A DNA stretch of 64,000 bases from Eledone cirrhosa (taxonomy: Eukaryota). Within the stretch, counting starts at the first letter, position 1; each line of letters starts with the position of its first letter. This document shows positions 1 to 57,410 of this stretch, in pieces. The notes under the pieces were generated by a model, which saw only the letters and a program-made list of their open reading frames with translations, searched no databases and was not told the DNA's origin. The position numbers and the translations under genes are program-made. Where the stretch lies: the NCBI GenBank assembly GCA_964016885.1, contig CAXHJY010000072.1:7555-71554 (forward strand), written 5' to 3'.

Positions 1-730
<730 letters not shown>

Positions 731-956
731 ATTGGAATAAATGCTCTGAAATAGCGATATATATGTGAATATAGACACAGAATATTCGAAAATATTCTGT
801 ATGTTATAATAAACATTTTGAAGACCTAATCGCTATAGAATAGAATACGTCACGTATTACAATTAGATTCTCGATAAAAGCAAGGAAGTAAGTCTACGCG
901 TTTCATTCTTGTTAGAATTCATCAGGACTACATATCCAGTGCTTTTATCGAGAATG
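731..956 (-). repeat. Inverted partial copy of the 311-bp unit, with one complete hammerhead on the minus strand
   Basis: Reverse complement of unit sequence tctcgataaaagca...ttattccaat; TCATCAG at 919-925. Confidence 0.93.
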
Positions 957-3900
957 AAACGCGTAGACTTACTTCCCTTGCTTTTATCGAGAATCTAATT
1001 GTAATACGTGACGTATTCTATCTATAGCGATTAGGTCTTCAAAATGTTTATTATAAACATACAGAATATTTTCGAATATTCTGTGGTCTATATTCACATT
1101 ATATCGCTATTTCAGAGCATTTATTCCAATTTCTAATTTCTGCCGGACCGCAACCGCTCTTTCAAACCAGTTCCTGTACACAGCTAAGTATTCTATAAGT
1201 CTCTAGCTGTGTCATTCTCGATAAAAGCACTGGATATGTAGTCCTGATGAATTCTAACAAGAATGAAACGCGTAGACTTACTTCCCTTGCTTTTATCGAG
1301 AATCTAATTGTAATACGTGACGTATTCTATTCTATAGCGATTAGGTCTTCAAAATGTTTATTATAAACATACAGAATATTTTCGAATATTCTGTGTCTAT
1401 ATTCACATATATATCGCTATTTCAGAGCATTTATTCCAATTTCTAATTTCTGCCGGACCGGCAACCGCTCTTTCAAACCAGTTCCTGTACACAGCTAAGT
1501 ATTCTATAAGTCTCTAGCTGTGTCATTCTCGATAAAAGCACTGGATATGTAGTCCTGATGAATTCTAACAAGAATGAAACGCGTAGACTTACTTCCCTTG
1601 CTTTTATCGAGAATCTAATTGTAATACGTGACGTATTCTATTCTATAGCGATTAGGTCTTCAAAATGTTTATTATAAACATACAGAATATTTTCGAATAT
1701 TCTGTGTCTATATTCACATATATATCGCTATTTCAGAGCATTTATTCCAATTTCTAATTTCTGCCGGACCGGCAACCGCTCTTTCAAACCAGTTCCTGTA
1801 CACAGCTAAGTATTCTATAAGTCTCTAGCTGTGTCATTCTCGATAAAAGCACTGGATATGTAGTCCTGATGAATTCTAACAAGAATGAAACGCGTAGACT
1901 TACTTCCCTTGCTTTTATCGAGAATCTAATTGTAATACGTGACGTATTCTATTCTATAGCGATTAGGTCTTCAAAATGTTTATTATAAACATACAGAATA
2001 TTTTCGAATATTCTGTGTCTATATTCACATATATATCGCTATTTCAGAGCATTTATTCCAATTTCTAATTTCTGCCGGACCGGCAACCGCTCTTTCAAAC
2101 CAGTTCCTGTACACAGCTAAGTATTCTATAAGTCTCTAGCTGTGTCATTCTCGATAAAAGCACTGGATATGTAGTCCTGATGAATTCTAACAAGAATGAA
2201 ACGCGTAGACTTACTTCCCTTGCTTTTATCGTGAATCTAATTGTAATACGTGACGTATTCTATTCTATAGCGATTAGGTCTTCAAAATGTTTATTATAAA
2301 CATACAGAATATTTTCGAATATTCTGTGTCTATATTCACATATATATCGCTATTTCAGAGCATTTATTCCAATTTCTAATTTCTGCCGGACCGGCAACCG
2401 CTCTTTCAAACCAGTTCCTGTACACAGCTAAGTATTCTATAAGTCTCTAGCTGTGTCATTCTCGATAAAAGCACTGGATATGTAGTCCTGATGAATTCTA
2501 ACAAGAATGAAACGCGTAGACCTTACTTCCCTTGCTTTTATCGAGAATCTAATTGTAATACGTGACGTATTCTATTCTATAGCGATTAGGTCTTCAAATG
2601 TTTATTATAAACATACAGAATATTTTCGAATATTCTGTGTCTATATTCACATATATATCGCTATTTCAGAGCATTTATTCCAATTTCTAATTTCTGCCGG
2701 ACCGGCAACCGCTCTTTCAAACAGTTCCTGGTACACAGCTAAGTATTCTATAAGTCTCTAGCTGTGTCATTCTCGATAAAAGCACTGGATATGTAGTCCT
2801 GATGAATTCTAACAAGAATGAAACGCGTAGACTTACTTCCCTTGCTTTTATCGAGAATCTAATTGTAATACGTGACGTATTCTATTCTATAGCGATTAGG
2901 TCTTCAAAATGTTTATTATAAACATACAGAATATTTTCGAATATTCTGTGTCTATATTCACATATATATCGCTATTTCAGAGCATTTATTCCAATTTCTA
3001 ATTTCTGCCGGACCGGCAACCGCTCTTTCAAACCAGTTCCTGTACACAGCTAAGTATTCTATAAGTCTTCTAGCTGTGTCATTCTCGATAAAAGCACTGG
3101 ATATGTAGTCCTGATGAATTCTAACAAGAATGAAACGCGTAGACTTACTTCCCTTGCTTTTATCGAGGAATCTAATTGTAATACGTGACGTATTCTATTC
3201 TATAGCGATTAGGTCTTCAAAATGTTTATTATAAACATACAGAATATTTTCGAATATTCTGTGTCTATATTCACATATATATCGCTATTTCAGAGCATTT
3301 ATTCCAATTTCTAATTTCTGCCGGACCGGCAACCGCTCTTTCAAACCAGTTCCTGTACACAGCTAAGTATTCTATAAGTCTCTAGCTGTGTCATTCTCGA
3401 TAAAGCACTGGATATGTAGTCCTGATGAATTCTAACAAGAATGAAACGCGTAGACTTACTTCCTTGCTTTTATCGAGAATCTAATTGTAATACGTGACGT
3501 ATTCTATTCTATAGCGATTAGGTCTTCAAAATGTTTATTATAAACATACAGAATATTTTCGAATATTCTGTGTCTATATTCACATATATATCGCTATTTC
3601 AGAGCATTTATTCCAATTTCTAATTTCTGCCGGACCGGCAACCGCTCTTTCAAACCAGTTCCTGTACACAGCTAAGTATTCTATAAGTCTCTAGCTGTGT
3701 CATTCTCGATAAAAGCACTGGATATGTAGTCCTGATGAATTCTAACAAGAATGAAACGCGTAGACTTACTTCCCTTGCTTTTATCGAGAATCTAATTGTA
3801 ATACGTGACGTATTCTATTCTATAGCGATTAGGTCTTCAAAATGTTTATTATAAACATACAGAATATTTTCGAATATTCTGTGTCTATATTCACATATAT

Positions 3901-4825
3901 ATCGCTATTTCAGAGCATTTATTCCAATTTCTAATTTCTGCCGGACCGGCAACCGCTCTTTCAAACCAGTTCCTGTACACAGCTAAGTATTCTATAAGTC
4001 TCTAGCTGTGTCATTCTCGATAAAAGCACTGGATATGTAGTCCTGATGAATTCTAACAAGAATGAAACGCGTAGACTTACTTCCCTTGCTTTTATCGAGA
4101 ATCTAATTGTAATACGTGACGTATTCTATTCTATAGCGATTAGGTCTTCAAAATGTTTATTATAAACATACAGAATATTTTCGAATATTCTGTGTCTATA
4201 TTCACATATATATCGCTATTTCAGAGCATTTATTCCAATTTCTAATTTCTGCCGGACCGGCAACCGCTCTTTCAAACCAGTTCCTGTACACAGCTAAGTA
4301 TTCTATAAGTCTCTAGCTGTGTCATTCTCGATAAAAGCACTGGATATGTAGTCCTGATGAATTCTAACAAGAATGAAACGCGTAGACTTACTTCCCTTGC
4401 TTTTATCGAGAATCTAATTGTAATACGTGACGTATTCTATTCTATAGCGATTAGGTCTTCAAAATGTTTATTATAAACATACAGAATATTTTCGAATATT
4501 CTGTGTCTATATTCACATATATATCGCTATTTCAGAGCATTTATTCCAATTTCTAATTTCTGCCGGACCGGCAACCGCTCTTTCAAACCAGTTCTGTACA
4601 CAGCTAAGTATTCTATAAGTCTCTAGCTGTGTCATTCTCGATAAAAGCACTGGATATGTAGTCCTGATGAATTCTAACAAGAATGAAACGCGTAGACTTA
4701 CTTCCCTTGCTTTTATCGAGAATCTAATTGTAATACGTGACGTATTCTATTCTATAGCGATTAGGTCTTCAAAATGTTTATTATAAACATACAGAATATT
4801 TTCGAATATTCTGTGTCTATATTCA
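950..4825 (+). repeat. Tandem array of a 311-bp unit, about 12.5 copies (retrozyme-like)
   Basis: gaatgaaacgcgtag recurs at 1261, 1572, 1883 and onward (period 311); copies differ mostly by 1-bp indels. Confidence 0.97.
1214..1303 (+). ncRNA. Minimal type I hammerhead ribozyme (representative; cores at about 1244, 1555, 1866, 2177, 2488, 2799, 3111, 3422, 3732, 4043, 4354, 4664)
   Basis: gtagtc-CTGATGA(1244-1250)-attct/aaca/agaat (stem II)-GAAA-cgcg-TA^gacttac; stem I extended by a 16-bp perfect helix attctcgataaaagca/tgcttttatcgagaat; predicted cut after 1274. Confidence 0.88.
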
Positions 4826-5637
<812 letters not shown>

Positions 5638-5754
5638 TAAACGTTAGAATATGTGTAATAAGGCCAAGACAATGCAGATATGGACATAGAAAAAGAATGC
5701 AATAGTGAGAGATATTGATGAGAATTCGTCTTTCACCTTGTATTTATTTAAATG

Positions 5755-28887: not shown

Positions 28888-29326
28888 GGTGCAATGTCAA
28901 CTCTGGATGTCGGTGAGCATGTCCAGCTAACCTCGGTCTCCTCTGTGTCACTTTTGAGCTGACTTTTGGGATAATCCCATACAGCTCTGAGTTTTTCATC
29001 CTCAGTGTATACTGATTAATGTTCAGAGCCATCCTCAGCATTCTCGTGTAGCACTCATCCACCATCTGAGTGAGTTTCTTGGTCAGTGTCCAAGTCTCAG
29101 ACCCGTACAGCAGCACAGACTCCACTACAGCAATGAAGAGGCGGAATTTCCTGTGGGAGCCCCTACTAGAAGAGGAAGACCAAGGTTAACGTATGTTGAT
29201 GCCCTAAGGACAGACACTGGTCTGTTGGAGACGCAGGACATGGCAGCGATAATGAGGGAGAGAGACCGCTGGAGAGAACTCGTCCATGGATCTCGGGAAT
29301 TTTACCCGCCTTAGATAGATAGATAT
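28888..29326 (+). mobile_element. RTE LINE copy with 5' inversion
   Basis: 28888-29149 is the reverse complement of about 56950-57210; 29154-29326 is a direct copy of 57224-57405 with (TAGA)n. Confidence 0.88.
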
Positions 29327-46819: not shown

Positions 46820-47795
46820 ACGTTGACTTTGCCTTTCATCCTTACAGGGGTCGATAAAATAAAGTACCAGTAATGCACTGGGTAATTGCTGGCCTTGTGC
46901 CTAACGTAGAAACAATTATTATATAGTTACGTCGCTTTACGGTCTGGGTTCAAATCCCGCCGAGGTTAACTATGCCTTTCATCCTTATGGGGTCGATAAC
47001 ATAAAGTACCAGTCATGTACTGGGGTCGATTTAATCGACTTTTCCCTCCCCCAAATTGCTGGCTTTGTGCCTATATAAGAAACCATTATTACGTCAGACA
47101 CCATGCTTTGCAGCATATAGTTACGGGCCTTTACGTTCTGATTTCAAATCGTGCTGAGGTTAGCTTTGCCTTTCATCCTTACGGGGTCGATAAAATAAAG
47201 TACCAGTAATACACTGTAGGAGATTTAATCGACTTTCTCCTGCCCAAAATTGCTGGACTTGTGCCTATAGTATTACGGTAGAGGGTCGGACGCCATGCGT
47301 TGCAACATAGTTACGGCCCTTTATCATCTACGTTCAAAATCCCGTTGAGGTTAACTTTGCCTTTCATCCTTACGGCGATAAAATAAAGTACCAGTAATAC
47401 ACTGAGGTAATTGCTGGCATTGTTCCAAAAAATAGAAACAATTATTACATCAAACACCTTGCTTTGCAGCATATAGTTACTGCCCTTTACGTCGATAAAA
47501 TAAACTACCAGTAATACACTGAGGTAATTGCGGGACTTGCCTTGTTCCAAAAATAGAAACAATTATTACATCACACACCATGCTTTGCAACATAGAGTTA
47601 CTGCCCTTTACGTCTATAAAATAAACTACCAGTAATACACTGGAGTATTTGCTGGCCTTGTACCAAAAAATAGAAACAATTATTACATCAGACACCATGC
47701 TTTGCCACATAGAGTTACTGCCCTTTATGTCGATAAAATAAACTACCAGTAATACACTGAGGTATTTGCTGGCCTTGTGCCAAAAGTAGAAAAAT
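46820..47795 (+). mobile_element. Tandem cluster of truncated SINE family A copies ending in a ~120-bp satellite-like repeat
   Basis: About seven repeats of gataaaataaa(g/c)taccagtaat. Confidence 0.82.
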
Positions 47796-48239
47796 GTATT
47801 AGTGTTGTTGTTGAGCCATTCCAGACGTGGAACACATCGACAGCGTAAGTTCCTTGTTTGCTAACGTGTTTTAAAACATTTTTCTCTGCATATAATATAT
47901 TGCTTTGTAGCTAAACCAACAATCTTCTCAAGAAGCTGGTTGGATTCTTTATATCTGTAGAGATTAAGGGGTATATTCGTGTATGCCGTTTCGTAAGCAC
48001 GCCCAACAACAACATCAACTACCATCAACATCCCCACCACCAATATCACCGCCACCATCACTAACACCAGAACAACCATATATATTTTAAAAAAAAATAT
48101 ATATATATATATACACATATCCAAAATTAAATGAAGAGTGTCATATCTGAGACTTGCACCATATCCACTATAGAATATGCTCAAAGATTCTAATGAATAG
48201 ATCCGAGCATTTTATATCAACTAGAAATTGATTGACATT

Positions 48240-55040: not shown

Positions 55041-55740
55041 GTATATATATATAGTATATATATATATATATATATATATACATCGTATATATATAGTATA
55101 TATATATAGTATATATAGTATATATATATATATATAGTATATATAGTATATATAGTATATATATATATATATAATATATATATAATATATAATATAGTAT
55201 ATATATATATATATAGTATATATAGTATATATAGTATATATATATATAGTATATATAGTATATATATAGTATATATATATATATAGTATATATAGTATAT
55301 ATATATATATATAGTATATATAGTATATATATATATATAGTATATATAGTATATATATATATATATAATATATATAGTATATATAGTATATATATATTTA
55401 TATAGTATATATAGTATATATATGTATATATAGTATATATATATATAGTATATATAGTATATATATATATATAGTATATATATGTATATATAGTATATAT
55501 ATATATAGTATATATAGTATATATATATATAGTATATATATATATATAGTATATATAGTATATATATATAGTATATATAGTATATATATATATATAGTAT
55601 ATATAGTATATATATATATATAGTATATATAGTATATATATATATATAGTATATATAGTATATATATATATGTATAGTATATATAGTATATATATATATA
55701 GTATATAGTATATATATATATATAGTATATATAGTATACA
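50768..55740. repeat. ~5-kb (TA)n tract with successive TCG, TCA and TAG variant blocks
   Basis: Directly visible. Confidence 0.95.
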
Positions 55741-57410
55741 GATCCAGGGAACGGGGCCCGAGGATAGGAAGAGGAAATGGCTAGACCATTTTAGGACCCT
55801 ACTAGGAGAGCCACCCTCCACAGCCCAGAGCACTGGGGAGATCAGGCGGCTGTTTGAGGAACTGGATGTTGAGACAGAGCCCTTCACCAGAGAGGAGCTT
55901 CAGAGAGCCAAGAAGAAGATCAAGGAGGGCAAGGCTCATGGAGAAGATGGAGTAGCATCAGAGGTGATGAAGTGGTGTGATTTTGATGATATCATCCTGG
56001 GGTTCTGTAACGGGGCACTGGAGAAAGGAGTTGCCCCGAATCAGTGGAGGATCAGTAACATCGTCCCAGTGCCAAAGAAGGGAGATCTCTCTAACACCAA
56101 CAACTACCGGGGGATCTCACTGACGTCACTTGTGGCAAAGACCCTCAACAGGATGATTCTTAACAGGATCCAGCCTGAGATGGAGAAGAAGCTCAGGGAC
56201 AACCAGAACGGCTTCAGAGAGGGTAGATCAACCACCAGTCACATCCTGATGCTGAGGAGGATATTAGAGGGAGCTAGAGCAAAGTGCCTTCCTGCGGTCA
56301 TGGTTTTCATTGACTTTAGGAAGGCCTTTGATTCTGTGGACCGTTACTGCCTGATGAAGATCTTGCGGGCTTATGGAATCCCCAAGAGGATAGTGGACCT
56401 GATATCACTGCTCTACACCAACACCAAAGCCCAAGTCATTACACCTGATGGGATGACAGAGTTCTTTGAGATACTGGCTGGAGTGCTCCAGGGAGATACA
56501 TTGGCTCCCTACCTTTTTGTCATCGTAGTGGACTATTGTATGCGCCTTGCACTGGAGAAACACCAGGACTCTGGCTTTACTGTAGCACCGGCTCAGAGCA
56601 GGAGAGTTGGGGCGAAAAAGGTATCGGATGCTGAATTTGCCGACGACATAGTTTTGGTGACAAATACAGTGAAGGAGGCATAGGATTTGATGCGGGAGGT
56701 TGAGACTGTGTCGATGAGTGTGGGGCTGAGAATGAATGAGTCTAAAACAAAATATCTGGTAGAGAATGTTGAGAAGCCAGAGGGGATCACTAATATAGGC
56801 GGGAAGCCGCTGGAATTGGTTGAGGACTTCCTGTATTTGGGAGCAAAGATTGGGAATACGGAAGATGATGTGGTTGAGAGGAAGAGCAAGGCTTGGGCGG
56901 CGTGCCACAGCTTGAGATCGGTGTGGAAGTCGGACCTTCGTAGAGACCTGAAAATCCGCCTCTTCATTGCTGTAGTGGAGTCTGTGCTACTGTGTGGGTC
57001 TGAGACTTGGACACTGACCAAGAGACTCACTCAGATGGTGGATGGGTGCTACACGAGAATGCTGAGGATGGCTCTGAACATTAATCAGTATACACTGAGG
57101 ATGAAAAACTCAGAGCTGTATGGGAGCCTCCCAAAAGTCAGCTCAAAAGTGACACAGAGGAGACTGAGGTTGGCTGGACATGCTCACCGGCATCCAGAGT
57201 TGACATTGCACTCCGTGCTCCTTTGGGAGCCCCTACATGGACACACTGGAAGAGGAAGACCAAGGTTAACATATGTTGATGCCCTAAGGACAGACACTGG
57301 TCTGTTGGAGACGCAGGACATGGCAGCGATAATGAGGGACAGAGACCGCTGGAGAGAACTCGTCCATGGATCTCGGGAATTTTACCCGCCTTAGATAGAT
57401 AGATAGATAG
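55741..57410 (+). mobile_element. 5'-truncated RTE-clade LINE with (TAGA)n tail, inserted in (TA)n
   Basis: RT remnant listed below; the stop codon runs directly into the (TAGA)n tail. Confidence 0.92.
55742..57394 (+). pseudogene. RTE reverse transcriptase, 5'-truncated, one in-frame TAG at 56681-56683
   Basis: PKKGD..NYRGISL, QNGFR, FIDFRKAFDSV, GVLQGDTLAP, FADD, FLYLG, GSETW, GRGRPR motifs. Confidence 0.93.

Follow-up and report, generated by a model that had tools for sequence, protein, structure and literature searches.

The window analyzed here, a stretch of 64,000 nt from Eledone cirrhosa, contains a 311-nt tandem array that was originally predicted to be a satellite of self-cleaving hammerhead ribozymes. 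Knowledge of animal retrozymes dates back to newt satellite 2. We found that the array represents one of many insertions of a non-LTR retrozyme family that is young and dispersed.

The array and its hammerhead

TRF reported a period of 311 with 12.5 copies and 99% matches at 951-4834. Twelve CTGATGA..GAAACGCGTA cores on the plus strand start at 1244, 1555 and so on to 4664, with predicted cleavage sites after 1274, 1585 and so on to 4694, and a single minus-strand core lies at 925-895, in agreement with the 12 plus units and one minus copy of the original prediction. Five of the 12 units are identical, and the remaining units mostly vary by 1-nt indels restricted to single units. The minus copy is a partial arm that overlaps the plus arm by 7 nt, and both arms are embedded in (TA)n (Table 1). 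The predicted period of 311 was thus recovered, but rather than forming a local satellite, the array is one dispersed insertion whose two arms are divergent. The unit has a GC content of 0.35, and its longest ATG ORF has 39 aa. Nine ORFs of at least 40 aa were found over 700-5000, all of them TA-repeat read-throughs except two (84 and 40 aa) that sit within units bearing single-unit indels. As predicted, there is no credible coding ORF.

Table 1. Features of the insertion and of example units, in window coordinates
Feature	Position	Strand	Remarks
Left (TA)n target tract	1..730	.	TRF AT array 1-732
Inverted arm	731..957	-	0.73 unit, 227 bp
Outer end of inverted arm, 'tailed' B end		-	166 nt past predicted cleavage site
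Hammerhead core, inverted arm	895..925	-	plus weak HH9 match 874-941
Inner junction of arms	951..957	.	7-nt microhomology
Direct arm	951..4825	+	12.5 units of 311 nt
Outer end of direct arm, short A end		+	131-140 nt past cleavage site; TA microhomology blurs to 4834
Example type I hammerhead	1541..1616	+	motif in all 12 units; stem I, CUGAUGA at 1555, 5-bp stem II with AACA loop, GAAA, palindromic ACGCGU stem III, predicted cut after 1585
Example conserved structured domain	1638..1747	+	closing stem and two hairpins; spans A site
Example 'tail' interval	1716..1756	+	A site (1716-1725) to B site (about 1749-1756)
Right (TA)n target tract	4826..5639	.	TRF 4825-5639

Every full unit of the window (12/12) has a type I hammerhead motif, and the unit folds better than chance (z = -5.14; none of 100 shuffles was as good). 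Pair probabilities in stems I and II were 0.76-0.99, whereas a stem III hairpin had a probability of 0.00, its place being taken by the palindrome ACGCGU. At the base of stem II, A-U (U-U in the most frequent haplotype) takes the place of G-C, and the absence of the G10.1-C11.1 pair makes this hammerhead atypical. Two features of the canonical monomer-active type I hammerhead, a foldable helix III and G10.1-C11.1, are therefore missing. Of the full core claimed for each unit, CUGAUGA, stems I and II and GAAA stood, but stem III as a foldable hairpin did not. The Rfam check suggested at the time qualifies the claim: no match reached the gathering score, and the sole hammerhead match was Hammerhead_HH9 at 18-20 bits versus a gathering score of 52. 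Rfam matches of the miRNA type were rejected, as they originate from the inversion hairpin. No hammerhead core was found on the minus strand of the unit.

In the sister subfamilies, which are homologous round the entire unit and likewise tandem and ORF-free, both sides changed in 13 of the 16 hammerhead pairs, and none of 500 shuffles reached the observed covariation score. C3-G8 was replaced by U3-A8 in 4 of the 20 rows of the alignment. Among the haplotypes of the family itself, none of the 55 fixed changes fell in the 12 core positions. Judged by sequence comparison, the ribozyme structure of the family is under selection. Cleavage every 311 nt is expected from the modeled fold to require a dimeric, double-hammerhead conformation. 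Of nine predicted Xenopus retrozymes, eight failed to cleave in vitro (10.64898/2026.07.22.740005). Hammerheads of the PLE type can have almost no activity unless protein is present (PLE, Penelope-like element; PMC11167929; PMC4209133). The modeled structured domain near the A site is likely a recognition element for the reverse transcriptase; the three pairs in it that change on both sides are not above shuffles (269/500). A B-box-like word, seen when Pol III boxes were judged by eye, is not conserved among the sister subfamilies.

A dispersed family with paired ends and locus-private haplotypes

The unit gave 18,205 matches in the E. cirrhosa genome and its control none. The B junction gave 1,056 matches and the A junction 714 (controls, 0 each), and the B-junction count sets a lower bound of at least 1,056 loci. 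The genome-wide search proposed with the original prediction thus revealed a large family with a unit of 310-311 nt, and, in line with the suggestion that it may be undescribed, we found no paper describing it. The family has no LTR organization, and its insertions are dispersed over many loci, 142 of which were mapped, mostly on one chromosome-scale contig. Where a classical satellite would consist of a few long local arrays grown by DNA recombination, the genome has over 1,000 short double-arm insertions, near-identical and scattered. Among the 142 loci, 105 are inverted double arms with both outer ends visible, 16 are one-armed or unresolved, and 21 extend past the stretch examined.

Insertion ends genome-wide map to the A and B sites that bound the 'tail' interval. 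A paired with B in all 105 inverted loci with both ends visible, a short end always facing a tailed end at an offset of about 30 nt. These loci came from successive sets (81 + 5 + 2 + 17); 15 were chosen regardless of their ends, 73 via the B end and 17 via the A end. Like PLE-mobilized elements, all 105 combine an inverted copy with a tail at one end only. Flanks were (TA)n at 76 of 84 A ends and at 110 of 113 B ends; the B-end figure largely reflects ascertainment. Telomerase-like reiterative synthesis of the TA flanks was not supported, since A ends showed no excess of sense-type interruptions (21 versus 34).

Arms range from 0.2 to 45 units. Their inner ends lie within 8 nt of the cleavage site in 8 of 170 cases, versus about 8.8 expected (hand count); arms do not stop at the predicted cleavage site. 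Three arm ends that seemed to lie there were BLAST edge artefacts. The phases of the two inner ends are unrelated to each other and to the A or B sites, and microhomology at the inner junctions averages 2.1 nt versus 0.76 nt at random.

Among the 126 loci with full coverage, we distinguished 43 haplotypes. Within a locus, all units and both arms are fixed for that locus's own haplotype, and loci about 1% apart from each other are each homogeneous. Differences within loci amount to 0.79 per kb (579 units); 125 fixed variants are common to both arms, and six loci show discordance. The longest arm (45 units) carries recurrent interspersed variants with partial periodicity, which counts against a one-circle template because such variants are impossible from a single circle. 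A mid-arm switch from A to G at one locus (L182) also counts against it. Changes in the family show an A>G excess, a sequence pattern that hints at RNA editing. The unit was also present in contigs of six runs of unrecorded kind, contigs that are uninformative on expression or circularity; 340-nt single contigs from three of the runs fit a circle and a tandem array equally well.

Template, enzyme and rival explanations

We consider it about 75% probable that the self-cleaved monomer is circularized and then copied by rolling-circle reverse transcription from both target nicks in (TA)n by a PLE enzyme. Read-through transcripts would self-cleave as double hammerheads and the monomers would be ligated into circles; because stem III is palindromic, a monomer circle would be unable to cut itself. 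A Hydra-type PLE protein would nick both (TA)n strands and would prime at B on one strand and at A on the other, about 30 nt apart, where the ends are observed. Each cDNA would then make the 0.2 to 45 turns recorded in the arms, and the microhomology seen at the junctions would join the two cDNA ends into a back-to-back array. The original prediction had likewise proposed a retrozyme, a Penelope link and rolling-circle reverse transcription, all of which are supported by the genome-wide end rule and the haplotypes. It had argued from near-identical copies; the inference is supported, but near-identity alone is weak, and the diagnostic evidence is the locus-private haplotypes together with the paired end rule.

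PLEs are reported to carry a tail of 30-40 bp at one end (PMC8557442). In work with a purified PLE protein, both strands were cut and extended, and synthesis started at two RNA sites, which define the tail (PMC11167929). In the E. cirrhosa genome, inverted copies of Hydra-type PLEs obey the same rule of one short and one tailed end (family A, 5/5; family B, 10/10 pairs), and intact elements of this type show it too. Young open-frame PLEs are co-resident (821-aa and 758-aa frames, copies 95-100% identical), so that a young PLE with a matching target and end rule is present. Pfam found no family in three PLE-like ORF pieces, and the clade assignment of the PLEs is therefore based on motifs and atlas neighbours. 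The hammerheads of the unit and of PLE family B match at 26 of 28 nt, a score reached by 3 of 1,000 core-preserving shuffles. When masked loci totalling about 0.48 Mb were searched with the unit by sensitive BLAST, only sister retrozymes and this family B hammerhead came up. The tails of the Hydra-type families examined measure about 66 and 88 nt and are not homologous to the retrozyme tail. None of the PLE loci examined has a homologous A-B region, the loose-end motif had no match genome-wide, and no RT plus GIY-YIG ORF bounded by the unit was found in loci whose flanks were read. A 54-nt junction insert (L219) was rejected as a switch to another element's RNA, and hence as evidence for a partner; a private variant that it has in common with a genomic copy nearby shows it to be locally templated. 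At one locus (L284), the retrozyme joins PLE family F directly, which may be an insertion with deletion.

A PLE could also have performed the two-primer insertion on a long linear RNA, read through from an array already present and left uncleaved, the ribozyme being slow or silent. Such a template would yield the same A and B ends and arm-shared haplotypes, it would explain the mosaic 45-unit arm, and unprocessed RNA is the main substrate of the purified PLE (PMC11167929). However, any new mutation would then be confined to a single unit, and mosaics should be common, whereas the 43 haplotypes are fixed over whole loci. On one linear RNA, moreover, the first arm would be expected to stop close to the second priming site, whereas the observed inner ends show no relation to A or B, and selection on the ribozyme structure also counts against this reading, which we regard as unlikely. 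A cleaved linear monomer, on which the reverse transcriptase jumps repeatedly from the 5' end to the 3' end and so makes concatemers, would likewise provide a monomer bottleneck, and jumps between molecules could account for the whole-unit interspersed variants of the 45-unit arm. We give it little credence, since neither the arm ends counted above nor single-unit errors (13/204 within 8 nt) are in excess at the cleavage junction.

Local growth at the DNA level from a single inserted unit or PLE end, by unequal crossover or circular-DNA amplification, has been proposed for vertebrate retrozymes (10.64898/2026.07.22.740005), and the partial periodicity of the longest array suggests some secondary rearrangement. 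It is a very improbable origin for arrays whose inverted arms are both multimeric with private variants in common, whose ends lie at fixed RNA sites, whose loci are each homogeneous although about 1% apart, and which have no PLE ORF next to the unit in loci whose flanks were read. The identical insertion anatomy and the family B hammerhead would also fit an ordinary autonomous PLE of which the unit is only the terminal repeat (pLTR), present as truncated end copies. This is largely refuted by arms of pure head-to-tail units, up to 45, by the lack of similarity to the PLEs compared outside the hammerhead, and by the whole-unit homology of the tandem, ORF-free sister subfamilies. Long-read assembly artefacts are a negligible explanation of the arrays or inversions: the scattered 1-nt indels in window units do resemble consensus errors and exact unit numbers could be off, but the loci have unique flanks on both sides, private haplotypes and a strict end rule. 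Separately assembled contigs of one public sample also contain 13 distinct minus-to-plus joints at depth 3-40, although none is the window's own junction and the sample may be the assembly's source.

Relation to known elements and significance

In LINE-1 twin priming, cDNA is primed by two target 3' ends, giving an inverted arm and inner-junction microhomology. Unlike there, both priming sites are fixed in the Eledone family, many turns are copied per arm, and the positions of the inner ends bear no relation to the second priming site. Metazoan non-LTR retrozymes, by comparison, have a TSD of more than 4 bp when one is present; Eledone flanks are (TA)n, in which a TSD is unreadable. As described in the portions of PMC7229834 cited here, those of coral, mussel and axolotl (newt satellite 2) share with the Eledone family a non-coding tandem unit (150-450 bp there, 311 nt here), a type I hammerhead, a GC content below 50% (35% here), the absence of LTRs, a palindromic helix III expected to act as a dimer, and PLEs in the genome. 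In contrast to that description, most Eledone insertions consist of two divergent arms in (TA)n, strictly pair a short end with a tailed one, and have haplotypes that are clonal within the locus; expression, cleavage and circles have been shown for those retrozymes, whereas the Eledone family is known from genomic sequence.

The family resembles endonuclease-positive PLEs, notably the Hydra clade, in its inverted 5'-truncated copy, its (TA)n targeting, its 30-40-nt tail at one end only, and its two initiation sites with the hammerhead upstream of both (PMC8557442, PMC3846280, PMC11167929); unlike them, it has no ORF, and its arms are concatemers of a 310-nt unit. With vertebrate non-LTR retrozymes, viewed as PLE derivatives, it shares the PLE association and a hammerhead resembling that of a co-resident PLE. 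Post-insertion local amplification was suggested for the vertebrate elements, whereas Eledone arrays appear to be made at insertion, and beyond the hammerhead none of the PLE ends found is homologous to the Eledone unit (10.64898/2026.07.22.740005).

How animal retrozymes re-enter DNA, and by which enzyme, has only been proposed so far (PMC7229834; 10.64898/2026.07.22.740005). The Eledone family is young and abundant enough for the mechanism to be read from its insertions. With two priming sites mapped, a target and a template bottleneck recognized, and candidate open-frame Hydra-type enzymes in the same genome, an in vitro test is well defined. An enzyme able to reverse-transcribe a small RNA circle into concatemers of several kilobases, and to place them in a defined repeat, would be of biochemical interest in itself. 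The strict short/tailed pairing, present in autonomous elements too, suggests ordered two-strand priming for PLEs generally.

We tentatively go further, at somewhat less than even odds: each locus may be the fossil of one circular RNA, on which a dimeric PLE-type enzyme would prime both nicked strands at two fixed sites of the ribozyme-made circle and roll for up to 45 turns, while A-to-I edits on circles would enter the germline and drive the family's sequence change. If true, this would be direct genomic evidence that PLEs retrotranspose circRNA, and it would account generally for their inverted-plus-tail structure. The copying of an RNA circle straight into the genome by a PLE is a long-proposed step that is now testable.

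The 311-nt unit and its hammerhead

The array was originally predicted to hold 12 plus-strand hammerhead copies and 1 minus-strand copy without a credible coding ORF. Our count of type I cores agreed (12 plus, 1 minus), and an ORF check found the 311-nt unit to be without coding capacity. Its predicted fold is strongly structured (z, -5.14), with high pairing probability in hammerhead stems I and II. Stem III is the palindrome ACGCGU, for which hairpin closure is impossible and which is predicted to pair with a second copy (-7.5 kcal/mol). This is the same design as in dimer-only hammerheads, where, according to the available text of PMC4209133, multimers cleave and the monomer circle is spared. 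An Rfam search of the window gave no call for the unit's hammerhead.

Features of the window (PLE, Penelope-like element)
Feature	Position	Strand	Remark
(TA)n left tract	1-730		
Inverted arm	731-957	-	227 bp
Direct arm	951-4825	+	12.5 units x 311 nt
(TA)n right tract	from array end to 5639		
PLE ends with hammerhead	38462 (-), 39041 (+), 14114 (-), 14145 (+), 46118 (-), 50710 (+)		inverted or single; PLE families B, F and a B relative
LINE-type reverse-transcriptase fragment	55709-57391	+	frames of 324 and 236 aa; within 13-kb TA-rich tract
Second partial copy of LINE-type fragment	near 29038		
SINE-like tandem repeats, 194 and 117 bp	46921-47801		presumably resembling octopus SINEs

Older sister subfamilies of the unit gave 1,794 matches to one common motif; their tandem copies are spaced 314 to 333 nt apart, and homology runs around the entire unit. 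At such loci (L151-L180, L106 and L149), stem III is longer and foldable within a monomer, and one subfamily has a U3-A8 core. The same short/tailed end pair was seen there by eye. In a hammerhead alignment of the window with 19 of 36 listed rows, picked for diversity, 91% of 304 cells were paired, 13 of 16 pairs had changed on both sides, and the covariation score was matched by none of 500 shuffles; these counts are not independent events, because the rows belong to only a handful of related subfamilies. In four rows, the tertiary C3-G8 pair was replaced by U3-A8, a swap known from PLE hammerheads (PMC4209133, in part). Within the young 311-nt family, none of 55 fixed changes fell in the 12 core positions, although 18 of 49 fell inside the 48-nt ribozyme region. 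Judged from sequence, the hammerhead is under selection. A second domain, around the insertion ends, likewise has a conserved structure and was 96.6% paired (window plus 16 of 21 rows), with weaker covariation than the hammerhead.

Dispersal and the Penelope-like end pair

The array belongs to a family of dispersed insertions. Searches of the 3.0-Gb genome gave 18,205 exact matches to the unit's hammerhead, 714 exact junctions of the short outer end (A) and 1,056 of the tailed outer end (B), while reversed control queries for all three gave 0 matches. In the first 31 Mb of the chromosome-scale contig C1, 11 of 17 unit-bearing loci had the exact B pattern, so that extrapolation gives roughly 1,600 loci genome-wide. 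This dispersal, together with the noncoding tandem unit and type I hammerhead, supports the proposed retrozyme-like nature of the array. We inspected 142 loci (116 + 6 + 20), mostly on C1: 105 showed a divergent double arm and both of its outer ends, 16 were one-armed or unresolved (2 of them ending in gaps), and 21 extended beyond the fetched stretch. All 105 double arms combined an A end (~127 to 141 nt past the predicted cleavage site) with a B end (~160 to 172 nt), and this held for the 15 loci taken without regard to their ends as well as for the 73 selected by B and the 17 selected by A. On the ribozyme-sense strand, each outer end is a 3' end, and thus both arms read as target-primed cDNA.

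This inverted-arm anatomy with a one-sided tail is the same as in PLE insertions, where often an inverted copy lies alongside and one end alone bears a 30- to 40-bp tail (available portions of PMC8557442 and PMC3846280). A purified PLE protein can cut AT-rich DNA on both strands, extend the two strands and initiate at two internal RNA sites, which delimit the tail (PMC11167929, in part). The paired end rule is the Penelope signature, and its presence in 105/105 double-arm loci favors the suggested mobilization by PLEs. Two families of the same genome are young PLEs with open frames: family A (821 aa; 74 scored matches, 97 to 100% identity) and family B (758 to 759 aa; 73 matches, 95 to 100%). 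The family A motifs DKT, CxCx5C, CxxC and CxH match those described for the Hydra clade of (TA)n-targeting PLEs; family B has RW, DKT and CxCx5C, and atlas neighbors of the PLE proteins carried the HTH_animal and GIY-YIG families. Inverted copies paired a short with a tailed end in 5/5 cases for family A and 10/10 pairs for family B. Over 28 nt, the retrozyme hammerhead and that of family B agree at 26 positions, a score that 3 of 1,000 shuffles with the core preserved also reached, before any correction for how many families were compared; the unit and family B did not align outside the hammerhead, and no autonomous partner was found among the PLE families compared. At one locus, the retrozyme is joined directly to the tail of a different PLE family, which may reflect insertion with deletion.

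Several other elements were met. Hydra-type PLEs fall into five or more distinct families (L072, L270, L147, L144 and L150), well above the few molluscan PLE families noted in the available part of PMC8557442; two have many open-frame copies (~96,000 to 98,000 first-look candidates each, the sets overlapping). By eye, the tails of three PLE families have an apparent common UACUC...GAGUR hairpin directly beyond the short end. At least two more retrozyme-like tandem families of ~467 to 468 nt, with type I hammerheads and the stem III palindrome ACUAGU, sit at L038 (9 cores, 468-nt spacing), L055, L057 and L110, with 467-nt spacing at L104:2231 and 2698. They contain the word ATGCAAAT, which we take to be octamer-like, and their internal TA run is an occasional insertion site for the 311-nt family. 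Family G, an abundant short palindromic TA-inserting element (L041, L110, L139, L169, L177, L219 and L262), has a hammerhead-like stem III, and its short and tailed ends are separated by ~80 nt; no ORF was found at these loci.

Template, inversions and sequence changes

Support for real inversions came from an independent set of contigs, built from a public sample that may be the source of the assembly: they contained 13 distinct minus-to-plus joints at depths of 3 to 40, excluding the window's own junction. Three runs labelled as three other organisms (X4-X6) each held one 340-nt unit contig with 1 to 3 substitutions and a 1-nt gap, which may come from a related species, carry-over or an RNA circle.

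Over 126 fully covered loci we found 43 haplotypes, 28 of them observed once. Differences within loci amounted to 0.79 per kb (579 units), mostly singletons, and 125 fixed variants were common to both arms, with discordance at 6 loci. Locus-private haplotypes shared by both arms imply that each new variant goes through a bottleneck of one unit before a single event multiplies it. The template thus behaves like one monomer circle, and the bottleneck lends support to the predicted rolling-circle copying of a circular RNA. Arms measured 0.2 to 18.7 units in the main sample, with an overall maximum of 45.4. Inner ends were not concentrated at the cleavage site (8 of 170 fell within 8 nt of it, versus ~8.8 expected), and no relation was found between the two inner ends of a locus (85 junctions). 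Of these junctions, 63 were flush or overlapping (mean overlap, 2.1 nt versus 0.76 at random) and 22 had inserted bases, most of which derive from the unit; in one case they were copied from adjacent DNA. Two observations speak against a single circle as the only template: recurrent variants are interspersed among the units of the 45-unit arm, and at L182 an A-to-G change begins partway along one arm and is present throughout the other. These would require a switch of template, editing while the arm was being copied, or rearrangement afterwards. In the 45-unit arm (C1, about 97.46 to 97.48 Mb; L194 and L261), two-base variant units recur at roughly 9- and 27-unit spacing.

Fixed sense-strand changes were enriched in A>G over T>C, both by origins (at least 22 versus 5; p = 1e-4) and by sites (13 versus 5; p = 0.02); within-locus singletons were symmetric (13 versus 14). 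The excess is partly explained by tolerance of G-U wobble. A>G in A-U pairs nevertheless exceeded C>U in G-C pairs (18 versus 2, p = 0.013; by sites, 10 versus 1, p = 0.06), and the A>G site with the most recurrences (5 origins) lies in a paired UAG, the context that ADAR prefers. RNA editing is thus possible, the signal being suggestive only because origins were counted on a tree with the commonest haplotype as its root, and recombination could raise the counts.

Relation to known retrozymes

Circles of metazoan non-LTR retrozymes have been demonstrated in coral, mussel and axolotl, and their PLE-driven copying was proposed earlier (PMC7229834, in part). A 2026 preprint used phylogeny to tie retrozymes to PLE ends across 35 genomes, of which 31 were from vertebrates, 3 from insects and 1 from a coral, and suggested local amplification (available text of 10.64898/2026.07.22.740005). 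A squid genome gave 235 hammerhead hits, unanalysed in the accessible part of PMC6962438. The repeat landscape of the present genome may resemble that of an octopus. In line with the suggestion that the family may be undescribed, the literature searched contained no description of it, although Repbase, subscription papers, Figure S9 of PMC7229834 and the family files of PMC8557442 could list it. The same literature held no report of a double-arm end rule, clonal haplotypes or editing in retrozymes. Overall, the class is known, and the 311-nt family appears to provide unusually direct genomic evidence on its mechanism.
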